Notes: generated by a model not told the origin, from the sequence alone. Positions 9,028 to 63,918 are shown, counted from the stretch's first letter. The stretch is DNA of 64,000 nt from an uncultured bacterium (GCA_963727525.1 CAVSGO010000007.1:256001-320000), one strand, 5' to 3'. Translations and numbers: made by a program.

Positions 9028-10071
9028 GTGCCGCTCTCCGCGCCCGAACGCTCGCGCTACTTCGCCGACACGATCGCCATGGCACCCATGGCGCAGGGGG
9101 GCAACCTGCCCTATCGGCGCCTGTGCCGCGAATTCGGCGCCGACCTCACCTGCAGCGAGATGGTGATCGCCGACAAGCTCGTCAAGGGTGGTGAGGGGCC
9201 GCTGCTGCGCCACCACCCGAGCGAGGAGACCTTCGGTGTGCAGCTCTGCGGCATGCGTCCCTCCGTCGTCGCCGAGGCGGCTCGCATCGCGGTGGACCGT
9301 GGCGCGCGCTTCATCGACCTGAACTTCGGCTGTCCGATCGACCTCGTCGTGCGCCGTGGCGCGGGTTCAGCGCTCATGAAGAAGCCGCGCAAGCTGGCCG
9401 AGGTGGTGGCCGCCGTGCGGGAGGCGGTGGAGGTGCCGCTGTCGGCGAAGATCCGCACGGGCTACACGGAGGAGCGTCAGAACGCAGTCGAGGTGGCCCT
9501 GGCCGCCCAGGATGCGGGGGCCGACGCGCTGGCGATCCACGGCCGCACGCGGCAGCAGCGTTACAAGCGAAGCGCGAACTGGAACGTCATTGCCGACGTG
9601 GCCGGGGCGCTCACCATTCCCGTGCTCGGCAACGGCGACCTGCTCACGCCGTGGGACCTCGACCGCCGCCGCGGCGAGACGCCGGTGCGCGGATTCATGA
9701 TCGCGCGCGGTTGCCTCATCAAGCCGTGGGTCTTTCGCGAGCTGCGTAGCGGCGAGGCCTGGGTGCCCACGGTTGCCGAGCGCTGGGCCGTGATGCGACG
9801 CTACCTCGACTACGCGCTCGAGTACTTCGGCGACGACGACAAGGGGCAGCAGCGCGCCCACCGTTTCCTGATCTGGCATCTCCATTTCTGGCCACGCTGG
9901 CGGCCATACACCGAGGCCGACTATCAGGCGCACCTGCCCGAATCGCTCATCCAGCGCCGTGACGACGAGGTTGTCGGCGATCCCGACCTGGTACTGCTCG
10001 CAAGCGACGACGAGGCCGATCACGAGCGCATCTGGCGACGCCTCCTTGACAGCGATTACCCGGGAGCCTAG
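9028..10071 (+). CDS. tRNA-dihydrouridine synthase (Dus3-like)
   Basis: APM, DLNFGCP, GAGSAL, HGRTRQQRY, GNGD, MIARGCLIKPW. Confidence 0.92.
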   Translation: MPLSAPERSRYFADTIAMAPMAQGGNLPYRRLCREFGADLTCSEMVIADKLVKGGEGPLLRHHPSEETFGVQLCGMRPSVVAEAARIAVDRGARFIDLNFGCPIDLVVRRGAGSALMKKPRKLAEVVAAVREAVEVPLSAKIRTGYTEERQNAVEVALAAQDAGADALAIHGRTRQQRYKRSANWNVIADVAGALTIPVLGNGDLLTPWDLDRRRGETPVRGFMIARGCLIKPWVFRELRSGEAWVPTVAERWAVMRRYLDYALEYFGDDDKGQQRAHRFLIWHLHFWPRWRPYTEADYQAHLPESLIQRRDDEVVGDPDLVLLASDDEADHERIWRRLLDSDYPGA

Positions 10072-10074
10072 AGT

Positions 10075-10245
10075 GCGCGGGTAGTCGACGGCCTGTCGAC
10101 CAGCGGAAGTCCGGTGAGAATCCGGCGCGGCCCCGCCACTGTGAGCGGCGACGAAACCTGCACGACAGCCACTGGATGCCCGCGGGGCATCCGGGAAGGC
10201 GCAGGCGGTAGGACGACCCGCAAGCCAGGAAACCGGTTCCAGGCC
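10075..10245 (+). ncRNA. Cobalamin riboswitch (boundaries approximate)
   Basis: GGAAgtccGGTGAGAATCCGG..CCCCGCCACTGT, GCCACTGG..GGGAAGGC and B12-box-like AGCCAGGAAACCGG, directly upstream of a TonB receptor. Confidence 0.92.
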
Positions 10246-10276
10246 CTGTCCGTCACCTTCGCGGGCGAGGTACGGC

Positions 10277-48671: not shown

Positions 48672-48940
48672 ATGACCGACCGCCCCTTTCGCAAGCTGAC
48701 CGTCTACAGCTCGACCTACTGCCCGGACTGTACTCAGGCCAAGCGATTCCTGGCCGAGCACAGCATCGATTACGAGGTGATCGAGATCGACCGCGACCCC
48801 GACGCCGCCACGCGTCTGGAGCAGCAGACCGGCAAGCGCGGCGTACCCTACTTCGTGCTCGACGACGAGCAATGGGTGCGTGCCTACATCCCACGCCAGG
48901 GATTCGACCGCAGTGGCATGGCCGAGCTGCTGGGGCTCGC

Positions 48941-48944
<4 letters not shown>
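48672..48944 (+). CDS. Glutaredoxin/NrdH-like protein
   Basis: YCPDC, TGKRGVP; AGGAG RBS. Confidence 0.88.
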
Positions 48945-50143
<1,199 letters not shown>

Positions 50144-50371
50144 TCCCGATTGCGACGCTGGTGCCGGCACCGCTGGCTGGCGGGCCCACGCGGTGCTTGG
50201 CAGCCGGCCCCCCGATCACGGACCGCCGGATCCTGTCATCCGGCCTCGGTGTTACCACCCGCCTCTCGACGCCCCCGTGGTGGATTCGAGCTTCATCGGC
50301 AGCGGAACCTGCCGAAGTTCAGGGAGAAGTCCCGAGTCTTTGTCCAGGTCCCGGAGTCGAGGTCGCCAGTC

Positions 50372-51172
50372 ATGGAACAGCCCGTTGCCACCCAGCCCCG
50401 TATCAAGCGCGCGGCATACGAACGAGAGCTGAAACGGCTGCAGGCCGAACTCGTGAAGTTGCAGTACTGGATCAAGGCGCGTGGCCTGCGTGTGGCGGTG
50501 CTCTTCGAGGGGCGCGACGCCGCTGGCAAGGGGGGTGCGATCACCCGCATCACCGAGTGCCTGAGTCCCCGCATCTGCCGCGTCGTCGCCCTCGGGACGC
50601 CTACCGAGCGCGAGTGCAGCCAGTGGTATTTCCAGCGCTACGCCTCGCACCTGCCAGCCGGCGGTGAGATGGTCCTCTTTGACCGCAGCTGGTACAATCG
50701 GGCAGGCGTCGAACATGTGATGGGCTTCTGCACCGCGGGCGATTACACCGAGTTCCTACGCTCCTGTCCGGAGTTCGAACGCATGCTCGTGCGGTCGGGC
50801 TTGTCGCTCGTGAAGTACTGGTTCTCGGTGAGCGACGAGGAGCAGGAGCGGCGGTTCCAGGCGCGGATCCTCGACCCTCGCAAGCGCTGGAAACTGAGCC
50901 CGATGGACCTCGAGTCACGCGACCACTGGGTAGAGTACTCCATGGCGAAGGACGCCATGTTCCGCCACACGGATCTGAAGCAGGCCCCCTGGTATGTCGT
51001 GAATGGAGAAGACAAGCGGCGGGCGCGGCTGAACTGCATCAGCCATCTCCTGAGTCTCTTTCCTTACGAGGACCTCACGCCGGCGCCGATCGATCTGCCG
51101 CCACGTCAAGAGCAGCGCGACTACGTGCGACCACCCCTGACGGATCAGACGTTCGTACCAGAGACCTACTAG
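50372..51172 (+). CDS. ppk2: Polyphosphate kinase 2
   Basis: FEGRDAAGKGG, QWYFQRY, FDRSWYNRAGVE, WKLSPMD. Confidence 0.96.
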   Translation: MEQPVATQPRIKRAAYERELKRLQAELVKLQYWIKARGLRVAVLFEGRDAAGKGGAITRITECLSPRICRVVALGTPTERECSQWYFQRYASHLPAGGEMVLFDRSWYNRAGVEHVMGFCTAGDYTEFLRSCPEFERMLVRSGLSLVKYWFSVSDEEQERRFQARILDPRKRWKLSPMDLESRDHWVEYSMAKDAMFRHTDLKQAPWYVVNGEDKRRARLNCISHLLSLFPYEDLTPAPIDLPPRQEQRDYVRPPLTDQTFVPETY

Positions 51173-51321: not shown

Positions 51322-51549
51322 CTACCTCCGAAGATCCTCGAGTAGGCGCTCGTATTCGTCCTTGCTGATCTCGCCACGGGCGTAGCGCTGCTTGAGGATC
51401 GTCTCGGGGGATTCGCCGGGGAAGTCCCGGTCACGCGACCCCGACAGCTTCACGAGCCGGTAGACCAGCACCACAGCGACCACCAGCACCACGATCCAGA
51501 TGATTCCCATGAGTCCGCCTCCACCGAAACCACCCATGTTGCCGAACAC
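51322..51549 (-). CDS. SHOCT-domain membrane protein
   Basis: MGG-rich N-terminus, TM helix, ILKQRYARGEISKDEY; AGGAGG RBS. Confidence 0.88.
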   Translation of the reverse strand: MFGNMGGFGGGGLMGIIWIVVLVVAVVLVYRLVKLSGSRDRDFPGESPETILKQRYARGEISKDEYERLLEDLRR

Positions 51550-52662: not shown

Positions 52663-54666
52663 CTATTTGACGAGAGTCATCTTTCTCGTCAGCGTCTGCG
52701 CGTCCGTCGCCAGGCGATACACGTAGGTGCCAGAGGCGGCGGCAAGACCCGAGTCGGTCCGGCCGTCCCACACCACGGCGTGATCGCCCGATGCCATCGG
52801 CTCGTTGATCAGAGTGCGTACCATGTGGCCCTGCAGGTCGAAGACCTCCAGGCGCACCGGGCCGCGCTGGTCGAGCACGAAGGCGATCTTCGTGGACGGG
52901 TTGAAGGGGTTGGGCTGGTTCTGGGCGAGCGTCAGCGGGCGCGGCGCTTCGTCCTGGACCGGCGTCGAACCACCGGGGATCAACCAGTCGAGGCTGTTCT
53001 GCATGACGGCGTCGCGACTCGCGGCATCGGCGATGCCTTCCAGGCCGAAGCCGAGGAACACGATCTTGAAGCCGTTCATGTCGGTGCGCGAGCCGGCAAC
53101 GCGATCATTCGCGTAGTCGAAGATCGGCACGGCATCCGAGTAGTAGGTCTGGAACCAGTCGGGGTCGGACTGGTTGTTGGCGCCGTCGCCACCGGTGAGC
53201 TCGAAGGCGAGTCCGTCACCGATGGCATCGTCCGCCACACCCACGACCGAAGTACTGCCGGAGTTGCCACCGCGGAGGCGAATCCGGGTCTTGTTCTGGA
53301 ACCAGGTATTGAGGCCGTCGGCGTAGAGCGCCTCGGCGAGGTCCTGGCCCGACCAGAGCATGCGGCCGCCGGCGCCGAGGTAGGCGTCGATGGCGTCGCG
53401 GTCTTCGGCGTTGAAGCCGGGGTTCGCGTTGCCGCAGGCCCACACGACGGCGTCGAACATGCCGAGCGACGCCGCGTCGACCGTGGTCAGCGAACGGTTC
53501 CAGATCGTCACCGTCCGCCCGGCCGCGGTGATGGCCGGTTCGAAGTAGTCGGCGGCATAGCCCGCGTCGGCATCGTCGGCGATGAGCAGCACGTCGCGGC
53601 CGCCGGGCACCGCGAGGAAGCTCGCGGAGGCCACGGTCGCCTGGGCGCCCTGGCTATGCACGTTCAGCGTCACGGTGCCGTAGTCCGCGTCGGCCGCGTC
53701 CGTGGTCACCACGAGCTGCGTCGTGCCGAAGCTGGGGATCGGCACCGTCACGCTGGTGCCGTCCACACCATCGTGCGTGAAGTGGGCCGACCAGCCGGTC
53801 GGAAGCTGCGACGTGTCCAGCGTGATGTCGTAGACGTCGTCTTCCAGACCGAAGTTGGTGACGGTGGCCGTGCCGAAGACCAGCGGTCCGCCGGTCGCGA
53901 CGGCCTGCTGCTGTCCGTCAACGGCAACGCCGCCGGCGAACGGCAGGCTGCGGCTGTTGCCGCTGTTGTAGATGAACTTGTCGGTGTCGCGCTGTACCCA
54001 GACGATCGCTTGCATGTTCGCCGGGTTCCAGTCACCCATGACGAAGGGCAGCGTGACCGTCTGGATGTCGCCGATGTTCTGGGCCGTCAGCGGCGTGCCG
54101 GTGGCGTTGGGAAGCATGTCGCGCAGCACGTGTTCGAACGTGCGCGGTGCGTAGTAGAGGTCGCTCTCGACGATCGCGACACGCAGGTACGTGTTGGCGA
54201 TACTCGCAAGGTTCTCTCCGACGATCTCCACCTGCGCCGTCACGGAGGCGTTCCCGGGGGTGAAACTGTAGGCCTCCACCGTCACCGAGACCGGCGTGGT
54301 GTTTGTCCAGTGGTTCTCGATCACCGGGAAGTAGAGATGCCCGTCCATGGCGTCCGTACCGGCTCCGACGATGTGGTAGAACCCATCGAAGTAGAGGTCG
54401 GGGATGCCGCTCATGCTGTAATAGCTCTGACGCTGATCCGATTCCGGACAGCTCAGACCACCGCTCGATGCGAGGTAGTTGATGTAATTGAACTGGGTCG
54501 GTTGGTAGGTGTCCTCGCACACGGCGAGTCCCGCTTCAGCGTTGGGGCAGTACACTCACCAGGTGGCGGCGCCCAGCTCGGCCAAGACCGTGCGGGGCAC
54601 CTGGGCGTTGGCGACGGCGCTCGTCATCAAGACGCCGAACACCAGCAGCGACAGCATGCGCTTCAT
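52663..54666 (-). CDS. Secreted Omp28/thioredoxin-fold selenoprotein A (667 aa, Sec37) with FlgD-Ig C-terminal domain
   Basis: GGAGG RBS, ATG 54666, signal peptide, RTVLAELGAATW-TGA(54556-54558)-VYC in frame, GIPDLYFDG, HVLRDML, NQPNPFNP..RKMTLVK. Confidence 0.88.
54517..54555 (-). promoter_or_regulatory. SECIS-like hairpin A
   Basis: 39 nt after UGA; CGC-UGAA-GCG apical stem-loop 17 nt from the UGA, with an extended lower stem (folded by eye). Confidence 0.6.
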
Positions 54667-54811
54667 GGTTTTCCTCCGGAGGGTTGGCAGCTTCGAACAT
54701 GCCCGCGGGCATATGCTTCGACGATAGCACATGCTCCTCGAGTATACCAGTGTAACCTGATGGGAATTGATGTTTTAAAACGGTTCTCATGATCAGGATG
54801 CCTGCCTGTGG

Positions 54812-54841
54812 CACGGCCTCCCACCGGAGCGGGAGGCCGTG
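54812..54841 (-). terminator. Hairpin after selenoprotein B
   Basis: CACGGCCTCCC-N8-GGGAGGCCGTG; similar to the hairpin at 57011. Confidence 0.6.
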
Positions 54842-54860
54842 ACGTCGGCACGAGGATGCC

Positions 54861-56870
54861 CTATTTCACCAGGGTCATCTTCCTCGTCAGCGATTGCGTG
54901 TCGGTCTGCAGGCGGTACACATAGGTGCCGGAAGCGGCGCTTGGACCGTTATCGGTCCGGCCGTCCCACACCACGGTGTGGTCACCCGCGTCCATAGCTT
55001 CGCTGGCCAGCGTACGCACCAGGCGGCCCTGCAGGTCGAAGACCTCCAGCCGCACGGGACTCCGCTGGTCGAGAACGAAGGCGATCTTGGTCGACGGGTT
55101 GAAGGGATTGGGCTGGTTCTGGGCGAGCGCCAGGGGTTTCGGGGCCTGGTCCTCGACCGGCGTCGACGTGGTGCCGATCAGCCAGTCGAGGCTGCTGTCC
55201 ATGACGCTGTTGCGGTCCGCCTGGTCGGCGATGCCCTCGAGGCCGAAGGCCAGGAACACCAGCTTGTAGCCCGTGATCTCGATGCGGCTGCCTGCCAGCG
55301 CGCCGGTGCCATACTGGAATACCGGGATGGCGTCGGCGGTCAGTGTCTCGATCACGTCGGGGTCGCTCTGATTGTTGGCGCCGTCGCCGCCGTTCAGGGT
55401 GAACGCGAGCCCGTCGCCGATGGGATCGTCGGCCACGCCGGTGATGGCAAGGTTGCCGGAATTGCCGCTGACGACTCGGCAGCGGGTCTTGAATTGCATC
55501 CAGAGGTTGGCCGAGCCACCTTCGGCCTGCAGGTCCTGGGCGATGTCCTGACCCGTGATGAGGATCTTGCCGCCGGCCGTGAGGTAAGTGTCGATCGCGG
55601 CGCGATCGGCCGCCTCGAGACCGGGATTGGTGCCGCCGCAGGCCCACACGACCGCGTCGAAGTGACTCAGCACACTGCCGTCGAGCGCCGTCAGGTTGCG
55701 GTCCCACACGGAGTACGTGCGGGCCGACGCGCCGACCGCGGGACCGACGAAGTCGGTGGCGATGTTGTCCAGGCCGTCATCGGCGACCAGGAGCACGGTC
55801 TTGGTACCCGACACTGCGACGAAGTCGAGGGAGGCGACGTTGGAACCCGCTCCCTGGCTGGCGATGTTCAGCGTGACCTGTCCGCTTTGGTCGTCGGCCG
55901 CGTCGATCGTCACGACGAGGTCAAGGCTGTTGAAGCTGGCGAGCGGCAGCGTCATGCTCGTGGCGTCGGCGCCGTCGTGCGTGAAGTGCGCGTCCCAGCC
56001 GGCCGGAAGGCTGCCCAGTTCCAGGCTGATGTCGTAAACATCGTCCTCGAGGCCCAGGTTCGTGACCGTGGTGTTGCCGAAGGCTACCGGGCCGCCCTCG
56101 GAGACTGCCTGCTGCGCGCCATCGATGGCCACGCCGGCCGCGAAGGGCACCATGAGGCTGTTGCCGCTGTTGTAGATGAACTTGTCGGAGTCGCGCTGCA
56201 CCCAGACGATGATCTCCAGGTTCGCGCTGTTCCAGGCGCCCATGGTGAACGGCAGGGTGAACTCTTGCGTCTCGCCGCTGTTCTGGATGGTCAACGGCGT
56301 GCCCGTTGCGCTCGGCAGCATGTCGCGCAGTACGTGCTCGTACGTCGAACCGCCATACACGACATCGTTCTCGATGATCGCCGCGCGCACGTAGGTGTTC
56401 GCGGTGCTCGTGAGACTGCCGTCGATGAGTTCCACGCGCACGGTCGCGTACGCGTTGCCGGGCGCGAAGCTGAAGTCCGTCACGGCGACCGCAACGGGTG
56501 TGGAGTTGGTCCAGTGATCCTCGATGATCGGGACGTAGATGTGTCCGTCCTGGGCATCGGACCCGGCTCCGACAAGGTGGTAGTAGCCGTCGAAGAACAG
56601 GTCGGGAATGCCGCCCATCCCGTAATAGCTCATGCGCTGGTCCGATTCCGGGACGCTCAGGCCACCCGAGGAGGCCATGTAGACGATGTAGTTGAACTGT
56701 GTCGGATAGTAGGTGTCCCCGCACACGGCGAGGCCCGCTTCAGCGTTGGGGCAGTACACTCACCAGGTGGCTGCGCCGAGCTCGGCCAGCACCGTGCGTG
56801 GCACCTGGGCAGTAGCGACGGCACTGATCAGAAGCAGGCTGACCGCCACCAGCGATAGCAATCGCTTCAT
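54861..56870 (-). CDS. Secreted Omp28/thioredoxin-fold selenoprotein B (669 aa, Sec37) with FlgD-Ig C-terminal domain
   Basis: GGAGG RBS, ATG 56870, MKRLLSLVAVSLLLISAVATAQVPRTVLAELGAATW-TGA(56760-56762)-VYC in frame. Confidence 0.88.
56721..56759 (-). promoter_or_regulatory. SECIS-like hairpin B
   Basis: Differs from hairpin A at one of 39 nt; same UGAA loop. Confidence 0.6.
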
Positions 56871-57007
56871 GGTTTTCCTCCGGAGGTTGGCAGCTTTGAA
56901 CGATGCCCGTAGGCGTCTGGTGATTTTAGCATGATCTTTATGGAGAATCCAAGTTCAACTTTCGGTTGCTCAAATAAAGAAACAATACTCATTATCTTTT
57001 GACAACG

Positions 57008-57042
57008 AAAATCCGGCCCCCCACCAGAGTGGGAGGCCGGAT
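57008..57042 (-). terminator. Intrinsic terminator after selenoprotein C
   Basis: ATCCGGCC..CCCAC/GTGGG..GGCCGGAT stem followed by a U run on the minus strand. Confidence 0.75.
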
Positions 57043-57069
57043 CGTACGACAAGGGCTCGCAGCGTGTAT

Positions 57070-59085
57070 CTACTTGACCATCAACATCTTCCGTGTCAGA
57101 CGCTGGTTGCCCGCATCCAGGCGATACACGTACGTGCCCGACGCGGCCTGCTGACCGGCGTCAGTGAGACCGTTCCAGACCACGGCGTGGTCACCGGCCG
57201 CCATCGCCTCGCCTGCCAGCAGCGTGCGTACGAGGCGGCCCTGCAGATCGAAGACCTGTAGGCTCACCGGTCCGCGCTGGTTGAGCGCGAAGGCGATCTT
57301 GGTCATCGGGTTGAACGGGTTGGGCTGGTTCTGGGCGAGTGCCAGGGCCTTCGGGGCCTGGTCCTCGACCGGTGTCGACGTGGTGCCGATCAGCCAGTCC
57401 AGCGAGTTGTGCATGACCATGTCACGATCGGCCTGACTGGAGATGCCCTCGAAGCCGAAAGCCAGGAACACCAGCTTGTATCCCGAGATCTCGATCCGGC
57501 TGCCGGCCAGTGAGCCATCGCCGTAGTGGAACACGGGAATGGCGTCGGCCGTCAGCGTCTCGATGACATCCGGGTCGGTCTGGTCGTTGGCGCCGTCGCC
57601 ACCGTTGAGCGTGAAGCTCAGACCATCGCCGATCACATCGCCCGACTCACCGTCGATCTGGAAGTTGTTCGAGTTGCCGTTGAGGAACCGGCAGCGAGTC
57701 TTGAACTGCATCCAGAGGCTGGCCGAACTGCCCTCGGCGGCGAGGTCCTGGGCCACGTCCTGTCCCGTGATCAGGAGGCTGCCGCCGGCGGCGAGATAGG
57801 TGTCGAGTGCTGCGCGGTCGGTGTCGCGCAGACCGGGATTGGTACTGCCGCATTCCCAGATGACGGCATCGTAGTCCGTCAAGACGTTGCCATCGACCGG
57901 ACCCAGCGACCGTTCCCAGGTCGCGTAGGACTTGCCGGCGGACATGATGGCGGGGCCGAAGTACGGATCGGTGAGTCCGGCACCGTCATCGTCGGCGACC
58001 ACCAGCAGATCGGTGCCGCCGGCGAGGCCGGCGAAGGTCAGCGTCTTCACGACTTCCTGACCGGCCTGGCTGAACACCGTGAGGTCGGTACGGCCGGAGC
58101 CGCTCGCGCCCGGCATCATCGTCACGACGAGGTCTGTGCTCGTGAACGGATCCAGTGTCACCGTCGTGCTCGTGCCGTCGACACCGTCATGCGTGAAGTG
58201 GGCGCTCCAGCCCGCGGGCAGCGACGACGTATCGAGCGAGATGTCGTAGGTGTCCTGCTCGGTACCCACATTCACGATGCTCGTCGTGCCGAACACGATG
58301 GGATCGGAACCCTGCGCGATGACCTGCTGGGGACCGTTCACCGCGGCCTGCACCGAGTAGGGGCCGACCTCGCTGTTGCTGCTGTTGTAGATGAACTTGT
58401 CGGTGTCACGCTGCACGAACACGATCGCGTTCATGTTGGTAGCATTCCACGTGCCCATCGTGAACGGCAGGTGCAGGGTCTGCTCCTCGCCGTCGTTCTG
58501 GATCGTCAGTGGCGTGCCGGCCGCATTGGGCAGCATCTTGCGGCAGATGTGGGTGTAGTACTCGTGTCCACCGTACGTGAGGTCGTCCTCGATCAGGACG
58601 ACGCGGATGTACGTGCTGGCGTTGCTCGCCAGGTCGCCGAAGAGCTTCACCTTCACATCGACGAATGCGTCGGTGTGGTCGAACGACCAGTCCGTCACTG
58701 CGCACGCGACCGGTGTGGTGTTGAGGAAGTGGTTGTCGATGATCGGGATATAGGTGTGCCCGTCGACTTCACCGGATCCGGCGCCCACGACCTGCTGGTA
58801 ACCGTCCCACCGCAGGGTGGGGAAGCCGGTCACGCCGTAGTAACCGATGCGCGTCTGCGAGTCCGGGTTGTTGAGCCCGCCGGAGTTGTCCTCGTAGCAG
58901 ACGTACTTGAACTGGGAGTCTTCATAGAGGCCGTCGCACACGGCGAGGCCCGCATAAGCGTTGGGGCAGTACACTCACCAGGTGGCCGAGGCCATCTCGC
59001 AAAGCACCGTCCGGGGCACCTGGGCCGACGCCACAGCGCCGCACAGCAGAATGCCGAGCGCAACGGTAGTAGCCAGTCGCTTCAT
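57070..59085 (-). CDS. Secreted Omp28/thioredoxin-fold selenoprotein C (671 aa, Sec37) with FlgD-Ig C-terminal domain
   Basis: GGAGG RBS, ATG 59085, MKRLATTVALGILLCGAVASAQVPRTVLCEMASATW-TGA(58975-58977)-VYC in frame; GFPTLRWDG; RKMLMVK. Confidence 0.87.
58936..58974 (-). promoter_or_regulatory. SECIS-like hairpin C (variant loop)
   Basis: Same stem as B, but the loop is UUAU. Confidence 0.5.
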
Positions 59086-59238
59086 GGTAACCTCCAGGGG
59101 TTCGCGACTTCGAAATTCGAGACCGCTACCGATTTTATCAGGTATCCCTGTGGGGGGCAAGGGGTGAATCCCGTAAACTGTTGTGATGCAGTAAATTCAA
59201 AAACAGGAGAAATTCGCAGTTTTACCCACTTCGGCGTC

Positions 59239-59269
59239 AAAAACGGCCCCGGCTGGAGCCCGGGGCCGT
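59239..59269 (-). terminator. Intrinsic terminator after the TlpA-barrel gene
   Basis: ACGGCCCCGG..CCGGGGCCGT followed by UUUUU on the minus strand. Confidence 0.8.
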
Positions 59270-59295
59270 CGGCTTGCGCCGCGCGCGGTCGGCGC

Positions 59296-61281
59296 TCAGT
59301 AGCGGAATACCCCGAAGCATTCCACGCCCTCGAACGCCGGCTCGAACTTGCAGACGCCGCCCGAGCACAGGTAGCCCGCCTGGCGCTTGCCGAACCACAC
59401 GTTCAGGCTGCCGCCGTCGTCGAGGGTGTAGCTCACCTGGCCGGCGGGGAAGCTGCTGCCCTGCACCTCGCCCGAGCCGAGCTGGGCGTCGAACTTGTTG
59501 TTGGTCTCGAGGATCGCGTCGAAGGCCCAGTGGGGCGCGATCTCGTGCTCCAGCTTGTACCACTGCTGGTCGTACTTGCCCAGCACGCCCAGGCGCACAT
59601 GTTGCTGCTCGGCCTGCAGCGTCCAGCTGCGGACGGCGCTCTGGTACCAGGTGAGTTCGCCGATCACGGTCTGGCGGATCGCATCCTCACTATCGCGATA
59701 GCCGAATCCGGCGCGGAACCGGAAGTCGCCGAGGCGCTCCTGTTCGAGGTGGCCGTAGATCTCCTCGAAGAGATGCTCGTTCGCGTGGTTGGCGATGCGG
59801 CTCGCATTCGCGAGGGCGTTCCAGCCGTGGGGGCCGGTGTAATTGGCTTCCACCTGCCAGCCCTTCTCATCGTCGGGATCGAGGTTGTGCGGCGCGCGGT
59901 TCAGCAGCGTGTAGATGTGCTCGCGCACCAGGGCGGGCGGACGGTTGAGCGGCTGCTTGCCGTCGGCGCGCTTGATCACCGAAAAGTCACGGTAGTCGCT
60001 GTGTTCCACCGAGAGGCTGACCGGTCCTGTGTACAGGTTCAGATTGCCGTAGTAGGCCTTCCCCGGGGCCTTGTCGAGCGTGGTGGGATCGACGTCGAAA
60101 CCGGTCTTGTGACCGTACTCGAAGTAGGCGTCGCCCTTGCCGAAGAAGAGGCTGGCGCGGCCCGAGGCCACCCACTCGCGCTTGATGTCATCATGCGAGG
60201 GGAGCAGCGACGGCTCGTAGGTCAGGGCCGTGCCTCCCACCTTGAACGCCCATGGCAGTCCGAGCGCCCCGGCGAGCGGCACGTCGAAGGCCGCATCGAG
60301 GCCGCGCACGTCGACGTCGGCGATCTCCGCGCCACTGGTGGCATCGAGCACGCTGGCGGTGCCGGTGGTGCCCGAAAAGACCTGCATGTCGGCGGGGCCG
60401 GCCTGGCCGCGCACGTAGATGCCGTCGAGGCTCGTGTCGACGCGGATGTTGCGATCCTCGTAGCTGTTGAAGACGATGCCGCGGCCGAACATGCCGTAGA
60501 ACTGGCCCACCCGCACGAACGCGTCGCCATTGTTGTACTCGAAGAAGCGGTGGACGATCTTGTTGCGCCGGTTGCCCTCCTCGCTCGGCGCCTGGTGGTC
60601 GAGCAGGATGCCGGTGCGGAAGTCGCCGAAGAGGTACACGACGTCGAGCCAGTTCTCCACCTGCTCCTCGTCGGAGCTGGTGTCGTACTTGTACTTGAAC
60701 TGATCGCGCACGCTGAGCGCATCGCGCCAGTCCACGCCGCCGGTGCCCGCGGAGGCGGCGAGCGGCTCGGTCGGCTGCGTGAGCAGCGTCTCCAGCGCGA
60801 GCCGCACCTCTTCCTCGTCGCCGTCCTTGTAGCCGATGTGGCGGAACGCTTCGGCGCCATTCGCGTCGAATACGACCACGAAGGGAATCATGCCGCCGAT
60901 CTGCATGATCTGCTGCACGTCGCCCGCCGTGTCGAGGGCCACGATCACGTCGTCGTAGCCGCGCGACTGCACGTAGGGCTGCACCTTCGCCACGCTCTTG
61001 CTGTTGTCGATGTTCACGGCGATGAATGTGGCCTTGCTCGCGTACTCGCCGGCGAGCCGATTCATCTGCGGTAGTTCCTTGAGGCACGGGTTGCACCACA
61101 GCGCCCAGAACGACACGACCACCGGCCCCTGGGCCAGTTGCTCGCGCAGGTTCACCGTGCCGCCGCTGGCGGTGGGCAGGGTCCAGTCGGTGCTCAGGTA
61201 ATCGACGGCGGCCGCCGGCAAGGCGGCGCCGGCGAGAATGAGCAGGGCGAGGAATTGCAAAGCCCGGCGGTGGACCACCAT
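59296..61281 (-). CDS. TlpA thioredoxin fused to an outer-membrane beta-barrel (DUF6029-like)
   Basis: Signal peptide; SFWALWCNPC..ELP, IPF; then amphipathic strands (GQFYGMFGRG..SYEDR..DTSLDG) ending GKRQAGYLCSGGVCKFEPAFEGVECFGVFRY. Confidence 0.82.
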   Translation of the reverse strand: MVVHRRALQFLALLILAGAALPAAAVDYLSTDWTLPTASGGTVNLREQLAQGPVVVSFWALWCNPCLKELPQMNRLAGEYASKATFIAVNIDNSKSVAKVQPYVQSRGYDDVIVALDTAGDVQQIMQIGGMIPFVVVFDANGAEAFRHIGYKDGDEEEVRLALETLLTQPTEPLAASAGTGGVDWRDALSVRDQFKYKYDTSSDEEQVENWLDVVYLFGDFRTGILLDHQAPSEEGNRRNKIVHRFFEYNNGDAFVRVGQFYGMFGRGIVFNSYEDRNIRVDTSLDGIYVRGQAGPADMQVFSGTTGTASVLDATSGAEIADVDVRGLDAAFDVPLAGALGLPWAFKVGGTALTYEPSLLPSHDDIKREWVASGRASLFFGKGDAYFEYGHKTGFDVDPTTLDKAPGKAYYGNLNLYTGPVSLSVEHSDYRDFSVIKRADGKQPLNRPPALVREHIYTLLNRAPHNLDPDDEKGWQVEANYTGPHGWNALANASRIANHANEHLFEEIYGHLEQERLGDFRFRAGFGYRDSEDAIRQTVIGELTWYQSAVRSWTLQAEQQHVRLGVLGKYDQQWYKLEHEIAPHWAFDAILETNNKFDAQLGSGEVQGSSFPAGQVSYTLDDGGSLNVWFGKRQAGYLCSGGVCKFEPAFEGVECFGVFRY

Positions 61282-61396
61282 GGTTGCTCCTTCGGCGCGG
61301 CGCGTGACGGGAGGGGCGACCGCCTCACGCGGTTTCGCCCCGTCTCCCGGGCCGGATCGGCACCGGGGGACGGGGCGCTGGGATGGTTCTCGGGTC

Positions 61397-62533
61397 CTAC
61401 TTGACGAGCGACATCTTCACTGTCTGGGTCTGCGCGCCGACCTGGACCTTTGCCAGGTACACGCCCGTGCCCAGGGGATCGCCCGCGCCGTCGCGGCCGT
61501 CCCAGCTCACGCTCTGGCTGCCCGGGGCGACGAGCCCGGCATCGAGCGTGCGCACCTTCTGACCGCGCACGTCGTAGATGTCGATCGCTGCCGGCAGGGC
61601 ATGGTCGCCACCCACAGCGAAGCGGATCTCCGTGCGCGGATTGAACGGGTTCGGCGTTGCCTGCACCCCGCTCAGCAGCGGCTGCGCCATGTCTTCCACG
61701 CCCACGAGGCCTTCGGTGGACACGTAGTACGTGTACGATCCCACGACGGCACCATCGGTATTGCTGGCGATGTTCAGCGTCATCGAACCTGCACCCGTGG
61801 TGAAGAGGGGTGTGAAGTCGAGGTCGAAGTCGAGGAAGCCGCCGCTCGCGACGACACCAGTGACGGGCACGGTGAAGTCGGTCTGCGACGGCGGGTAGCA
61901 GATGCCGTCGTAGCACACGGTCGCGCTCCAGTCCAACGGCATGTCGCGAGTCACGGTCAGCGTGTAGCTGTCGTCCTGCATGCCCGTATTGAAGAGCGCG
62001 GTGTGGAAGCGCACGACTTCACCGTTGTTCGCCGGCAGTATGTTGGCGCCGGGGGCGAACGTGAAGGCCACGGGTGCGTCGCTCAGGGGAAGCACGGTGT
62101 ACGTCACATGCTCGTCGTAGCTCGGGTCGCTATTACTCGTGATGTTGATCGTGTAGGTTCCCGGTCCCTCGGTCACCAGCGTCGTGATGTCGAGATCGAC
62201 CTCAGTGGTTTCGCCCGGCGCGAGCGTACCGGTCTCGGGCACGATGAAGTCGACCAGGTCCGGCGTGTAGCAGACGCCGCCGTAGCATACGCTGAGGGTC
62301 CAGTCGTCGGGAATGTCCTTGGTGACTGTCAGGTGGAAGGTGTCGGCGTTCTCGCCGGTATTCGTGAGTTGCGCGATCACCTGATAGTACGAGAAGATCG
62401 GCATCACCACCGTGGTGGGGCCTGGGTTGTACTGGAGACCGTGGGGTGCTGCCAGGGCGGGGCCGGCGGTGAGGGCCAGCATGAGGCCGCCGGCCAGGCT
62501 ACAGAGGCAAGCGAGCTTGCGCAGGGTCGACAT
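61397..62533 (-). CDS. Secreted protein with two CxxGxC-containing Ig-like repeats and FlgD-Ig C-terminal domain
   Basis: Repeats WTLSVCYGGVCY and WSATVCYDGICY; TPNPFNP..WDGRD..GVY..KMSLVK. Confidence 0.82.
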   Translation of the reverse strand: MSTLRKLACLCSLAGGLMLALTAGPALAAPHGLQYNPGPTTVVMPIFSYYQVIAQLTNTGENADTFHLTVTKDIPDDWTLSVCYGGVCYTPDLVDFIVPETGTLAPGETTEVDLDITTLVTEGPGTYTINITSNSDPSYDEHVTYTVLPLSDAPVAFTFAPGANILPANNGEVVRFHTALFNTGMQDDSYTLTVTRDMPLDWSATVCYDGICYPPSQTDFTVPVTGVVASGGFLDFDLDFTPLFTTGAGSMTLNIASNTDGAVVGSYTYYVSTEGLVGVEDMAQPLLSGVQATPNPFNPRTEIRFAVGGDHALPAAIDIYDVRGQKVRTLDAGLVAPGSQSVSWDGRDGAGDPLGTGVYLAKVQVGAQTQTVKMSLVK

Positions 62534-62536
62534 GAG

Positions 62537-63817
62537 TTACCTCCCGGAATGCAGGGGTGGAGGGGGGGACGTGGCGGCGCGCGCGGTGTTCGTCAGCGTA
62601 GAACCGGCCTGGACCACGACTTTATCACTGGTGCGCTGGACGAAGGCCACCAAGGCCTTGCCATGCGGCGTCAAGATCGAGACGGGGTTGGTGGTGGGAT
62701 CGGGTTCGACGAGGGTGACAGAATAGTCGTGCAGTCCGGCCGCGAGCGCGCCCAGGTTCATCGAGGCCACGACGTGATCGCGGACGACGTTGTGGAACGT
62801 GCTGACGCCCTGATACACGGCCGCCGTCTCGACCTCCTCGTAGGTCAGGACGACACTCAGCGAGTAGCCGGTGAGATCGACGTCGGCAGGCAGATCGAGC
62901 GTGACGGTGGCGTCGACATTGAGATCGCTGAAATCGGGCGTCGGGATGATGATCGCGAAATCGGCGTCCCCGCTCTCCGCGACGATGCTGCTTTGCATCG
63001 CGGTGACGCCCGGCGGGGTGCCATAGGCACCGGCCAGAGCGCCATCGATGAAGAGCGACGGGTGGTTGAAGGAACCAGCCGGATTGTAGTACGCCATGCG
63101 CGCGTCCATCACCTGCTGCGACGTCCAGTAGAAGGGATCGGCGGGTGTGGGCACGTCTCCCACCCATTTCACGTAGATGACCTGGTCGGCGCCGTAGCCC
63201 GGTTGGCTCTGCAAGTACTCCACGTTGGCGTTGAAGGCCGGACAGCCGGTGCAGTGTACGTTGGAGAATCCCTCGAACAGCACGATGCGTGCGATGGCGA
63301 GCGAGGTAAGGGCGAAGTCGGCGGTGGCCGTCTCTTCGGCCACGACCGACACCTCCCGCGACTCCGGGTCGACGTCGAATCCATCCAGGACCACCGACAC
63401 CATGTGATCGCCCGGCAACAGGTCGGTGAAGGTGTGGGGCGTGAGGAACCCGCTATCGGTGCCGTCGAGCATGATCGCGGCGCCGGCCGGCGTCGACGTG
63501 ACGGTGAGGCCGCCCACGTGCGCGGCGAGCGTGAAGTCCGCACCTGCCGTGCCCCCGTAGGGGACGGTGACGGTGCGCTGGGCCGGGATCGGTGTGTGGT
63601 CTGCGAGTTCGACCGCGATATTGTACGTGCCACCTTCAACGTCAGTGAAGGTATGGGGAGTCACGTACGCGGTCACGGCGCCGTCGAGGCGGATGGCGGC
63701 CCCGGAAGGATCGGACGTGACCGTGAGGTCGCCAGGGGCCGGGGCTTCGCGGCCGCAGGCGGCCACGAGTACCAGCGTGACGAGGACGATGGCGAGAGCA
63801 GAGTGGCGGACGCGCAA
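62537..63817 (-). CDS. Lipoprotein with two PEGA domains and an Omp28/thioredoxin-like CxxC domain
   Basis: TTG start after GGAGGG; lipobox VAAC; two VTS.P.GAAI.LDG..TP repeats; RIVLFEGFSNVHCTGC, HPSLFIDG, NVVRD. Confidence 0.85.
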   Translation of the reverse strand: MRVRHSALAIVLVTLVLVAACGREAPAPGDLTVTSDPSGAAIRLDGAVTAYVTPHTFTDVEGGTYNIAVELADHTPIPAQRTVTVPYGGTAGADFTLAAHVGGLTVTSTPAGAAIMLDGTDSGFLTPHTFTDLLPGDHMVSVVLDGFDVDPESREVSVVAEETATADFALTSLAIARIVLFEGFSNVHCTGCPAFNANVEYLQSQPGYGADQVIYVKWVGDVPTPADPFYWTSQQVMDARMAYYNPAGSFNHPSLFIDGALAGAYGTPPGVTAMQSSIVAESGDADFAIIIPTPDFSDLNVDATVTLDLPADVDLTGYSLSVVLTYEEVETAAVYQGVSTFHNVVRDHVVASMNLGALAAGLHDYSVTLVEPDPTTNPVSILTPHGKALVAFVQRTSDKVVVQAGSTLTNTARAATSPPPPLHSGR

Positions 63818-63888
63818 CGCGTAACCCTCCGGGGTTGAGGATGAGGGTGGGGGCGCTTGCGAAATCATGCGGCACACGACGAAAGCCC

Positions 63889-63918
63889 AGTATACTATCC
63901 GGAGCTCATGCGAGTCAA
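63889..63918 (-). promoter_or_regulatory. Sigma70-like promoter of the redox operon
   Basis: TTGACT-N18-TATACT on the minus strand. Confidence 0.6.

Follow-up and report, generated by a model that had tools for sequence, protein, structure and literature searches.

HBP35 and the gingipain-type cysteine proteases, both T9SS cargo, depend on reduced cysteines, and HBP35 is said to have thioredoxin activity itself, reportedly found by Shoji in 2010. We know of no reductant for HBP35-type proteins and, more broadly, of no Gram-negative route by which thiol enzymes stay reduced once beyond the outer membrane. In DsbD, electrons go from a thioredoxin-fold domain to an Ig-fold domain and from there to thioredoxin-fold clients; to our knowledge the outer membrane has nothing comparable, and thiol-disulfide transfer across it is without precedent. 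MtrB, for its part, holds MtrA.

According to published accounts, PorA of P. gingivalis is a small protein with a FimH-like domain and a T9SS tail that gets to the surface independently of the T9SS machinery, and PorA (PG2172), Omp28 (PG2173), a vesicle protein (PG2174) and a thioredoxin-domain protein (PG2175) bear locus tags in order (PMC7712824; PMC13744359; PMC4335976). PorA is placed upstream of the PorXY system, for which it also serves as a ligand (PMC7712824; PMC12152298). Among selenoproteins, Zhang and Gladyshev 2008 present GOS_C as a family with a Trx-like fold and UxxC, with Sec in 74 sequences and Cys in 312 homologues (PMC2398784).

The window analysed here is a stretch of 64,000 nt from an uncultured bacterium (GCA_963727525.1 CAVSGO010000007.1:256001-320000), and all positions are counted from its first letter. 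Within 52,663–63,918, ORF calls gave six co-oriented envelope genes, G1 to G6, all on the minus strand, and the Cys or Sec motifs that a first-pass annotation had claimed for them were located in all six ORFs. The genes fill the span drawn by that annotation, except that its upper limit, 63918, lies 41 bases past the G1 ORF start at 63877. By ORF coordinates the gaps between genes of the cluster are 115–210 bases. We read this locus, with a probability of about 0.9, as the local version of an FCB-group cassette made up of a TlpA-type thiol reductase, a DUF6029 barrel, an Omp28/HBP35-like lipoprotein and an Ig-like Cys-hairpin protein with a T9SS tail; here TlpA is fused to the barrel, and three tandem HBP35-like selenoprotein paralogues have been added downstream. 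The cassette probably handles thiol chemistry at the outer membrane.

The fusion protein is G3 (59296–61281, minus strand, 661 aa), in which a TlpA/Redoxin domain (residues 25–158, approximately 60778–61209) precedes a DUF6029 beta-barrel (residues 196–654, approximately 59299–60717). In Pfam the first scored 50.6 bits against Redoxin PF08534 (cut-off 26.6) and the second 148.1 bits against PF19494 (cut-off 27), the only copy of DUF6029 in the genome. The TlpA domain, which superposes on 3gl3_B with Z 14.9 (rmsd 2.1, 137 aligned), carries WCNPC at residues 62–66, its cysteines lying inside 61084–61095, and a second motif, CSGGVC (residues 639–644, 59350–59367), forms the turn between the last two barrel strands. 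Across 120 sequences both C63/C66 and C639/C644 are at least 90% conserved, and the barrel C-x4-C recurs in 11 of 12 DUF6029 proteins from other phyla, the twelfth having an X at the second cysteine.

An AlphaFold2 model of G3 (pLDDT 89.0, pTM 0.89) has 24 barrel strands, as counted from its DSSP string, no plug domain of its own and a linker of only about 20 residues between TlpA and barrel; CSGGVC makes a tight, two-residue turn that joins strands 23 and 24. By strand parity the barrel cysteine pair is predicted to sit in the last extracellular hairpin, on the membrane face opposite to the periplasmic TlpA. This placement bears on the proposal of the first-pass annotation, a relay in which TlpA electrons would pass through the barrel to the surface lipoprotein and secreted selenoenzymes. 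Spelled out, the route would be the Cys hairpin and/or a lumenal Omp28-type domain, and thioredoxin-fold and selenol enzymes at the surface would thereby be recycled. The TlpA-barrel fusion and the predicted extracellular position of an invariant cysteine pair both fit that proposal, and a plugless 24-strand barrel could, by analogy with MtrB and MtrA, house a partner. The need of surface thiol enzymes for a reductant also speaks for the relay, as does the alternation of thioredoxin folds with Cys pairs in beta-hairpins or Ig-like domains, which by analogy recalls DsbD. The same model puts the hairpin on the far side from a TlpA held by a short linker, so that electron relay can be put only as a possibility, and the C-x-G-G-x-C geometry also suits an ordinary structural staple across two strands. 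We regard the relay as improbable. In another alternative, the genes would be neighbours with structural disulfides or independent active sites, TlpA would serve general periplasmic clients, and there would be no joint mechanism. The modelled hairpin geometry suits this, and the gaps of the cluster are wide enough to permit separate transcription; the gene fusion argues against it, as does the distribution described below.

The best structural matches of the barrel were the 24-strand usher pores, FimD (3ohn_A; Z 15.1, rmsd 4.3, 367 aligned) and PapC (2vqi_B; Z 14.5, rmsd 4.7, 364 aligned), and LptD was among the Foldseek matches. These matches speak for another reading, in which the barrel would be a dedicated translocon or assembly platform (cf. 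LptD-LptE, usher pores, Slam) that takes the Omp28-type lipoprotein and the Ig-like hairpin protein to the cell surface; TlpA would only keep their cysteines reduced until passage, and no electrons would exit. The Z for usher pores (about 15) is, however, near that for 18-strand porins (about 13).

The putative lipoprotein client is G1 (62537–63877, minus strand, 446 aa), a PEGA and Omp28/HBP35-like thioredoxin-fold lipoprotein with a lipobox Cys41, two PEGA stretches (69.4 bits in Pfam) and CTGC at residues 209–212 (63242–63253). Since the lipobox sits at codon 41, the true start is probably more internal than 63877. The label 'Omp28-like', given in the first-pass annotation, holds as distant homology, by profile and by structure, and falls short of the curated cut-offs for G1 as for G4–G6: G1 scored 22.5 bits against the NCBIfam Omp28 lipoprotein NF033782 (cut-off 150), and a Pfam search with G1 gave no PF11551 (Omp28) match. 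G1 can nonetheless be aligned to the Omp28 proteins encoded beside DUF6029, the C..C being invariant, and a profile of DUF6029-adjacent Omp28-type proteins, G1 and G5 included, found Omp28 (PDB 2r2c, E 7.3e-22) and HBP35 (5y1a, E 2.5e-12). All 12 G1 orthologues compared have Cys41, C209 and C212, and the Omp28-type CxxC is kept in 10/10 neighbours of DUF6029. A protein of the G1 type may lie at the cell surface.

Between these two genes lies G2 (61397–62533, minus strand, 378 aa), a secreted protein in which a signal peptide is followed by two Ig-like repeats and, at the C-terminus, a T9SS type A tail (30.7 bits for TIGR04183, whose cut-off is 23, and 44.3 bits for FlgD_ig). Each repeat has a cysteine hairpin, CYGGVC at residues 83–88 (62270–62287) and CYDGIC at 207–212 (61898–61915), and both cysteines of these C-x4-C hairpins were retained in 31 of 31 HSPs from 17 loci. 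Homologues of G2 include small tail-bearing proteins that adjoin TlpA elsewhere, Cys motif included (L004, E 2e-24; L007, E 4e-12), and at 12 of the 14 loci of the window's own family the middle gene encodes a G2-type Ig domain fused to a GATase1-like domain of the kind found in G4–G6. In cassette position, size, tail and one cysteine pair, G2 may resemble PorA.

This resemblance bears on the translocon reading, since PorA adjoins Omp28 by locus tag and arrives at the surface independently of the T9SS machinery, and G2-type proteins occupy the matching position in the cassette. Compared with PDB sequences at E up to 10, the G2 homologue from L004 gave a single, weak match, to FlgD, and none to a PorA entry, and according to its authors PorA has homologues only in Porphyromonas (PMC7712824). 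Moreover, G2 and G4–G6 carry T9SS tails and the genome encodes PorU (436.5 bits against a cut-off of 420), with many further T9SS tails, so an export route is already present. Taken together, we consider a dedicated translocon unlikely, to much the same degree as the relay.

PorA also suggests a role as redox sensor or regulator, in which thioredoxin-fold partners would set hairpin disulfides, in the barrel and in the PorA-type protein, as switches that report envelope or external redox to T9SS regulation. Cross-strand disulfides between neighbouring strands belong to a class that is often cleaved by oxidoreductases, the cysteine pairs are conserved, and PorA is both upstream of PorXY and a ligand for it. 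Changing the four cysteines of PorA, on the other hand, left its signalling role in P. gingivalis unaffected, so that they are dispensable for activation (PMC12152298), a result that counts against the explanation that we prefer as well. Around the cassette, a sigma-54 activator is encoded on the opposite strand at a distance of about 11 kb. A sensor is the least probable of the readings considered.

The cassette extends well beyond this genome. TlpA is fused to, or adjoins, DUF6029 in Krumholzibacteriota and Bacteroidota and at single loci labelled Aminicenantes and Balneola, and of the 120 best G3 homologues, 117 have both thioredoxin-type and DUF6029 Pfam domains. In unfused cases the TlpA gene directly adjoins the DUF6029 gene (e.g. 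G056, G109, G046, G006, G051, G034), an adjacency that holds too in 12 loci of other phyla picked for full-length matches. In the family to which the window's cassette belongs, all 14 primary loci have the order G1-type, G2-type, TlpA-barrel. Outside the window's phylum, Omp28 adjoins TlpA and DUF6029 at 9 of the 12 loci, being absent beside them in L006, L007 and L022, and at two of the 12 (L009, L018) the position directly upstream of TlpA is taken by a secreted Redoxin protein that has a T9SS tail. In a sample of 151 Bacteroidota genomes, as read from profile tables, 28 had both Omp28 and DUF6029, 3 DUF6029 only, 2 Omp28 only and 118 neither; the two genes were at most 6 kb apart in 22 of the 28. 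An omp28-DUF6029-TlpA neighbourhood in Bacteroidota, mentioned in the first-pass annotation, thus exists: 28 of 31 genomes with DUF6029 have Omp28. The cassette is not general, as 0/14 control genomes, Bacteroides thetaiotaomicron among them, matched for DUF6029 and likewise for Omp28.

The neighbourhood survey and the check on cysteine conservation that had been suggested at the outset both failed to refute the proposal: the genes co-occur in other genomes and all four cysteine pairs of the cassette are conserved (11/12, 12/12, 31/31 and at least 90% of 120, as above). The observation exceeds chance, with gene order and all Cys pairs recurring elsewhere. A literature search found no paper describing the cassette, and our verdict is that it is a real, widespread and unstudied module. 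An order conserved across phyla and a near-exclusive co-occurrence of DUF6029 and Omp28 also speak against neighbours that share no mechanism, which we think quite unlikely, if slightly less so than a sensor; the strict co-occurrence of three or four Cys-pair proteins is, conversely, a point for the relay.

Downstream of the fusion lie three selenoprotein genes, all on the minus strand: G4 (57070–59085; TGA at 58975–58977), G5 (54861–56870; TGA at 56760–56762) and G6 (52663–54666; TGA at 54556–54558), G4 being 61% and G6 66% identical to G5. Each begins with a conserved signal peptide followed by ATW-TGA-VYCPN, with the TGA as codon 37, and goes on through an HBP35/Omp28-like thioredoxin fold containing UVYC, an Ig-like domain, a GATase1/ThuA-like domain and a T9SS tail. 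For G4, G5 and G6 respectively, the tail scored 30.5, 33.1 and 26.9 bits against TIGR04183 (cut-off 23), PF11551 (Omp28) gave 34.5, 32.5 and 29.4 bits, below its cut-off of 34.9, and the 'Omp28-related selenoprotein' family NF045500 gave 40.8, 47.6 and 31.0 bits (E 1.7e-7 to 1.5e-12). Since the cut-off of NF045500 is 200, we take G4–G6 for a separate, longer subfamily. An AlphaFold2 model of G5 (pLDDT 83.7) superposes on HBP35 5y1a_A over residues 20–239 (Z 23.7, rmsd 2.3, 210 aligned, 17% identity) and on the ThuA-like 4jqs_A over residues 356–571 (Z 16.9, rmsd 3.2, 196 aligned).

The genome is able to make selenocysteine, with SelA (388.8 bits), a SelB wing domain (52.6 bits) and tRNA-Sec(tca). 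Among 22 aligned family members, the column of the TGA holds U in 21 and Cys in one (L115, WCGYC), the reading frame being conserved on both sides, and a Cys-type paralogue is located on contig C3. For the SECIS after the TGA, RNAalifold gave no consensus and single-sequence z-scores ran from -1.09 to +1.11; a two-hairpin SECIS model, whose structure was derived from the same sequences, paired 64.9% of cells, against 58.6% in shuffles (0/500 reaching 64.9%) and 23–49% when slid. This is a weak indication of a SECIS hairpin behind the TGA.

The selenoproteins had been proposed as members of a six-gene relay unit. This part of the proposal is not supported: among 22 other genomes with close Sec-type homologues, selenoprotein genes adjoin the cassette in only 4, and in 18 they are on other contigs or far off, a distribution that weighs against the relay and also counts against our preferred explanation. 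Gaps of 194–210 bases separate G4–G6 from G3 and from one another, and they may thus have their own transcription. The conserved core is G1-G2-G3 and G4–G6 are a lineage-specific addition outside it.

Just upstream of the cluster, and transcribed divergently, are T9SS-tailed secreted peptidases of the C25 and M14 families, in keeping with the secreted proteases that the annotation had invoked as context. The genome also has a DsbD_TM/CcdA membrane-domain match (176 bits). Gene content, conservation, folds and the capacity for selenocysteine are observed; the mechanism that follows is inferred throughout, from the flow of electrons or cargo to the placement at the surface. The inner-membrane CcdA/DsbD-type protein would reduce TlpA, which would be tethered where the 24-strand barrel opens to the periplasm and would act there on the cysteine pairs of its partners, CxxC in the lipoprotein and C-x4-C hairpins in G2, during their assembly at, or passage through, the barrel. 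The partners would then arrive at the cell's surface with the right redox state, where thioredoxin-fold proteins (the G1-type CxxC and the T9SS-exported G4–G6, with the more reactive UxxC) may act on external substrates, possibly including the neighbouring secreted cysteine peptidase. As a whole, this scheme, in which a barrel-tethered TlpA sets the redox state of its partners and surface thiol-disulfide chemistry follows, remains tentative, and we would put it at somewhat short of even odds. Speaking for it are the fusion and adjacency of TlpA and barrel, the cassette order, the co-occurrence of Omp28 and DUF6029, the conserved cysteine pairs, the folds, the genome context and the shared domains; speaking against it, besides the points already named, are the three loci that lack Omp28, the control genomes without the cassette and the chance that cysteine pairs at tight turns are purely structural.

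A bolder version would be a porin-thioredoxin conduit, with a thioredoxin-fold lipoprotein in or on the DUF6029 barrel and TlpA beneath, carrying reducing equivalents or reduced cargo from the periplasm to the surface of FCB-group bacteria; we hold it to be unlikely. If true, thiol and selenol enzymes at the surface, and cysteine proteases that are secreted, would stay active outside the cell, and the conduit would be a thiol counterpart of the haem-based MtrCAB. Without any electron crossing, a role would still be assigned to DUF6029, to Omp28 and to the whole selenoprotein family. With its periplasmic reductase always joined to a thioredoxin-fold lipoprotein and a very large barrel, the cassette is the obvious candidate for study in this respect, and the Krumholzibacteriota fusion is direct genetic evidence for reductase and barrel working together. 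Tandem secreted selenoproteins would, in addition, mean that selenium is used outside the cell. The cassette is found in cultured Bacteroidota (L019, labelled Flavobacterium sp. LMO8), and by locus-tag order it also appears to lie beside porA in P. gingivalis.

The closest described systems share some features with the cassette and lack others. Like HBP35 of P. gingivalis (PDB 5Y1A), G4–G6 are built as T9SS cargo, opening with a thioredoxin-fold domain and continuing through a beta-sandwich to a sorting domain at the C-terminus; unlike it, they have UxxC in place of CxxC and extra Ig-like and GATase1/ThuA-like domains, and are about twice as long. With NF045500, possibly the same family as 'hypothetical protein GOS_C', they have in common a thioredoxin-like fold, the UxxC motif and Cys-containing homologues. 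G1 resembles lipoproteins of the Omp28 type (PG2173, PDB 2R2C, PF11551, NF033782) in being encoded beside DUF6029 and TlpA, and differs in its two added PEGA domains and in scoring far under the curated cut-off. The TlpA domain of G3 shares the Redoxin fold and WCxPC with the TlpA/ResA/CcmG/Etrx reductases (DsbE, ResA and pneumococcal Etrx1/2 superpose with Z 14–15 and an rmsd of about 2 A), but here TlpA either forms one protein with a 24-strand outer-membrane barrel or always has that barrel encoded next to it. That barrel is like FimD/PapC and LptD-LptE in size, in its end-to-end alignment with usher pores and in being paired with a lipoprotein gene; at 8–10% identity to usher pores and 10–12% to LptD, the shared fold does not mean a shared function, and the plug and the N- and C-terminal domains of ushers are missing, with a thioredoxin domain in their place. 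Finally, DsbD and the cassette both alternate Cys pairs between thioredoxin-fold and beta-rich domains, whereas the membrane domain of DsbD is helical and lies in the inner membrane.

Six genes, all in the same orientation on the minus strand, make up the cluster (ORF listing, translated with TGA read as U). G1 (62537–63877), an Omp28/HBP35-like lipoprotein, has an LVAAC lipobox (Cys41), two PEGA stretches (69.4 bits) and a C-terminal domain carrying CTGC at residues 209–212. Three bases beyond its end starts G2 (61397–62533), with a signal peptide, two Ig-like repeats containing CYGGVC and CYDGIC, and a sorting domain at the C-terminus (TIGR04183, 30.7 bits vs a cut-off of 23). G3 (59296–61281) joins a Redoxin/TlpA domain (WCNPC) to a DUF6029 barrel (148 bits vs 27) and has a CSGGVC motif 18 residues ahead of its C-terminus. 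The remaining three, G4 (57070–59085), G5 (54861–56870) and G6 (52663–54666), are tandem paralogues (55–66% identity), each with a signal peptide followed by ATW-TGA-VYCPN; the intergenic gaps among G3, G4, G5 and G6 measure 194–210 bases. Since the genes of the downstream flank, namely a PPK2 polyphosphate kinase (50150–51172, plus strand), a 75-residue SHOCT-domain protein (51322–51549, minus strand) and a PUA/SAM methyltransferase (48872–50143, plus strand), have no envelope or redox role, the cluster ends at G6. Upstream of G1, just past the window end, two peptidase genes are found in divergent orientation on the plus strand: a C25 (gingipain-family) peptidase of 1583 residues (locus L123, 395–5146, or G000:C7:320194–324945 in the window's own genome) with propeptide, C25, CarboxypepD_reg, P-domain and T9SS-type tail, and a tail-bearing M14 carboxypeptidase of 853 residues (L123, 6084–8645; G000:C7:325883–328444). 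Genome-wide, PorU scored over its cut-off and about four dozen further places were matched through the PorU tail segment alone. The sole find of an Rfam gathering search of the window was a cobalamin riboswitch aptamer (10054–10255, plus strand; 81.7 bits, full-length model match).

The core of this cassette, G1-G2-G3, is widespread in Krumholzibacteriota. Thioredoxin-type and DUF6029 domains occur together in 117 of the best 120 homologues of G3, and the named sources among these 120 are Krumholzibacteria or unclassified bacterium. A homologue of G3 was found in 93 of the 151 genomes of the phylum, including 57 of the 60 from the family of the window; in the phylum sample, split versions have the TlpA gene directly adjoining the barrel gene. 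All 14 primary loci of the family keep the order G1-type lipoprotein, G2-type gene, TlpA-barrel, and in 12 of them the middle gene is a fusion of the G2-type Ig domain with the middle domain of G4–G6. One genome (G047; loci L092, L093, L115) has two TlpA-DUF6029 copies, the second 28% identical and with no G1 or G2 neighbours detected. In two related genomes (L084, L096) the G1 orthologue changes frame between its PEGA and Omp28-type parts, perhaps reflecting misassembly or a pseudogene.

Outside the phylum, the contig scan was crowded by generic TlpA matches, and only 15 of 80 loci, those with a DUF6029 match, were kept. Twelve loci from other phyla with full-length matches (138 ORFs scanned with Pfam) were selected for having TlpA and DUF6029 as adjacent separate genes, an arrangement thus present in 12/12 by construction. 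Pfam was used for Omp28 because tblastn with Krumholzibacteriota queries missed this gene in Bacteroidota; it placed Omp28 adjacent in nine of the twelve and detected no adjacent Omp28 in L006 (labelled Aminicenantes), L007 (Melioribacter roseus) and L022 (Balneola). Directly upstream of TlpA-DUF6029-Omp28, a Flavobacteriales MAG (L009, 8363–9895, plus strand) and a Crocinitomicaceae MAG (L018, 8388–9887, plus strand) encode a roughly 500-residue protein that bears a T9SS tail and, N-terminally, a Redoxin domain (ATWCGPC), a parallel to the secreted thioredoxin-fold genes of the window. Across 151 sampled Bacteroidota genomes, related ones among them not being independent, DUF6029 was present in 31, Omp28 in 30 and both in 28, with the two at most 6 kb apart in 22 of these 28 (read from tables), a clear pattern of co-occurrence. 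Two Omp28 matches with one in-frame TGA (G253:C41:85208–85687 and G227:C6:45153–45413), about 1 kb or less from DUF6029, may represent Sec-type Omp28 inside the Bacteroidota cassette. When a Bacteroidales DUF6029 protein was used as query, the matches listed were close rumen relatives only.

The first-pass annotation had proposed a thiol/selenol relay across the outer membrane, and this supposes that the cysteine pairs are kept in orthologues. Such conservation is borne out for TlpA, barrel, Omp28-type, G1 and G2 proteins alike. Across 120 G3 sequences, conservation reaches 90% or more at TlpA C63/C66 and barrel C639/C644 but not at C655. The barrel motif C-x-[GNS]-G-x-C recurs in 11 of the 12 DUF6029 proteins outside the phylum (the remaining one reads X where the second cysteine would stand), and all ten Omp28-type neighbours contain E-x-[FLY]-T...C-x-x-C. 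C209/C212 and the lipobox cysteine of G1 show no variation among its orthologues (12/12), and the pairs of G2 are preserved in 31/31 HSPs from 17 loci; the G2-type pair, as W-S-S-S-x-C-[YF]-x-x-C-[YF]-x-P, appears again in L004 and L007, in small proteins with a tail encoded next to TlpA.

The selenoproteins are an addition to this conserved core. Searching with the N-domain of G5, we found close Sec-type homologues (E < 1e-40, one in-frame TGA) in 22 other genomes. Only four of these genomes (G130, G097, G090, G089) have them next to a G3 homologue, and three of the four, those in the phylum-wide table of G3 homologues, belong to one genus; the remaining 18 carry them elsewhere. In 23 genomes, weaker matches devoid of TGA, either G1 type or the Cys-type N-domain of the middle gene, lie upstream of the G3 homologue by about 2 kb. 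In the window, the DNA of G4–G6 is nearly identical over the roughly 50 bases surrounding the TGA. The 22 aligned members (G4–G6 and 19 of 20 homologues cut from related genomes) conserve the signal peptide and VPR..E..ATW ahead of the TGA; in the TGA column, 21 have U and one (L115) has Cys. This sole Cys-type member (WCGYC) is carried by G047, the genome with two TlpA-DUF6029 copies. The genome encodes SelA (388.8 bits), the SelB wing domain and tRNA-Sec(tca), and the NCBIfam model 'Omp28-related selenoprotein' matches G4–G6 weakly (31–48 bits vs 200). RNAalifold gave no consensus structure for 21 post-TGA stretches, and single-sequence folds of these and the three window genes were no better than shuffles. 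A two-hairpin model, drawn from the same sequences, paired 64.9% of cells vs 58.6% in shuffles and 23–49% when slid, which hints weakly at a candidate SECIS after the TGA. A Cys-type paralogue of G4–G6 with signal peptide and tail (G000:C3:446643–448445, minus strand) has SCAPC in place of UVYC and 26.6% identity over G6 residues 71–667. Another gene flagged with one TGA, a TlpA paralogue beside CcdA, proved to be an ordinary Cys lipoprotein that terminates at this TGA.

The module is securely identified; what it does is a matter of weighing models. G3 was modelled with confidence (pLDDT 89.0, pTM 0.89), with 24 strands counted from the DSSP string. Every long connection of the barrel (13–39 residues) leads from an odd-numbered strand to the even-numbered one after it, and the even-to-odd connections are all of 2–10 residues. 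Given a periplasmic TlpA, strand parity would put the C639-G-G-C644 turn, which joins strands 23 and 24, on the extracellular face. A strict relay through the outer membrane, with electrons handed from periplasmic TlpA to this pair and on to the surface partners, seems to us unlikely. Complex prediction of G3 (26–661) with the Omp28-type domain of G1 (193–446), using their own alignments, scored 0.01 (mark 0.32) and counts neither way. We favour, with a probability of roughly 0.4, a reading in which TlpA is tethered to the barrel and, at the outer membrane, services its partners' cysteine pairs, which would yield thioredoxin-fold proteins able to act on the cell surface. A CcdA/DsbD membrane domain is also encoded in the genome.

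Some of these components are known from other contexts. Within the portions of the literature consulted, DUF6029 is called an uncharacterised domain that HHpred likens to polysaccharide porins (PMC9603273), and GOS_C a Trx-like UxxC selenoprotein family (PMC2398784); no paper devoted to the cassette itself emerged from our literature search, and none joining 'Omp28' and 'selenoprotein'. In Porphyromonas gingivalis, consecutive locus tags designate PorA (PG2172), Omp28 (PG2173), an uncharacterised vesicle protein (PG2174) and a thioredoxin-domain protein (PG2175) (PMC13744359, PMC4335976); PGN_0124, PGN_0125, PG2173, PG2174 and PG2175 are proteome-table or list entries there. PorA gets to the surface independently of the T9SS machinery (PMC7712824), and its signalling does not need its cysteines (PMC12152298); a PDB sequence search with the L004 homologue of G2 listed no PorA entry at E up to 10. 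The Omp28-type profile matched Omp28 (2r2c, 7e-22) and HBP35 (5y1a, 2.5e-12) in the PDB, where phmmer with a Bacteroidales Omp28 gave no match. The G5 model (pLDDT 83.7) has four parts, an N-domain resembling HBP35 (5y1a_A, Z 23.7, rmsd 2.3, 210 aligned), an Ig-like domain, a GATase1/ThuA-like domain close to 4jqs_A (Z 16.9, rmsd 3.2, 196 aligned), with no conserved catalytic cysteine seen in the alignment, and a sorting tail. The barrel of G3 aligns end to end with the 24-strand pores FimD (Z 15.1, rmsd 4.3, 367 aligned) and PapC (Z 14.5, rmsd 4.7, 364 aligned), and LptD is among its Foldseek matches; its model differs in having no usher-type plug. A translocon role for the barrel seems to us unlikely. 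The TlpA domain of G3, the proposed servicing partner, resembles DsbE, ResA and Etrx at Z 14–15.
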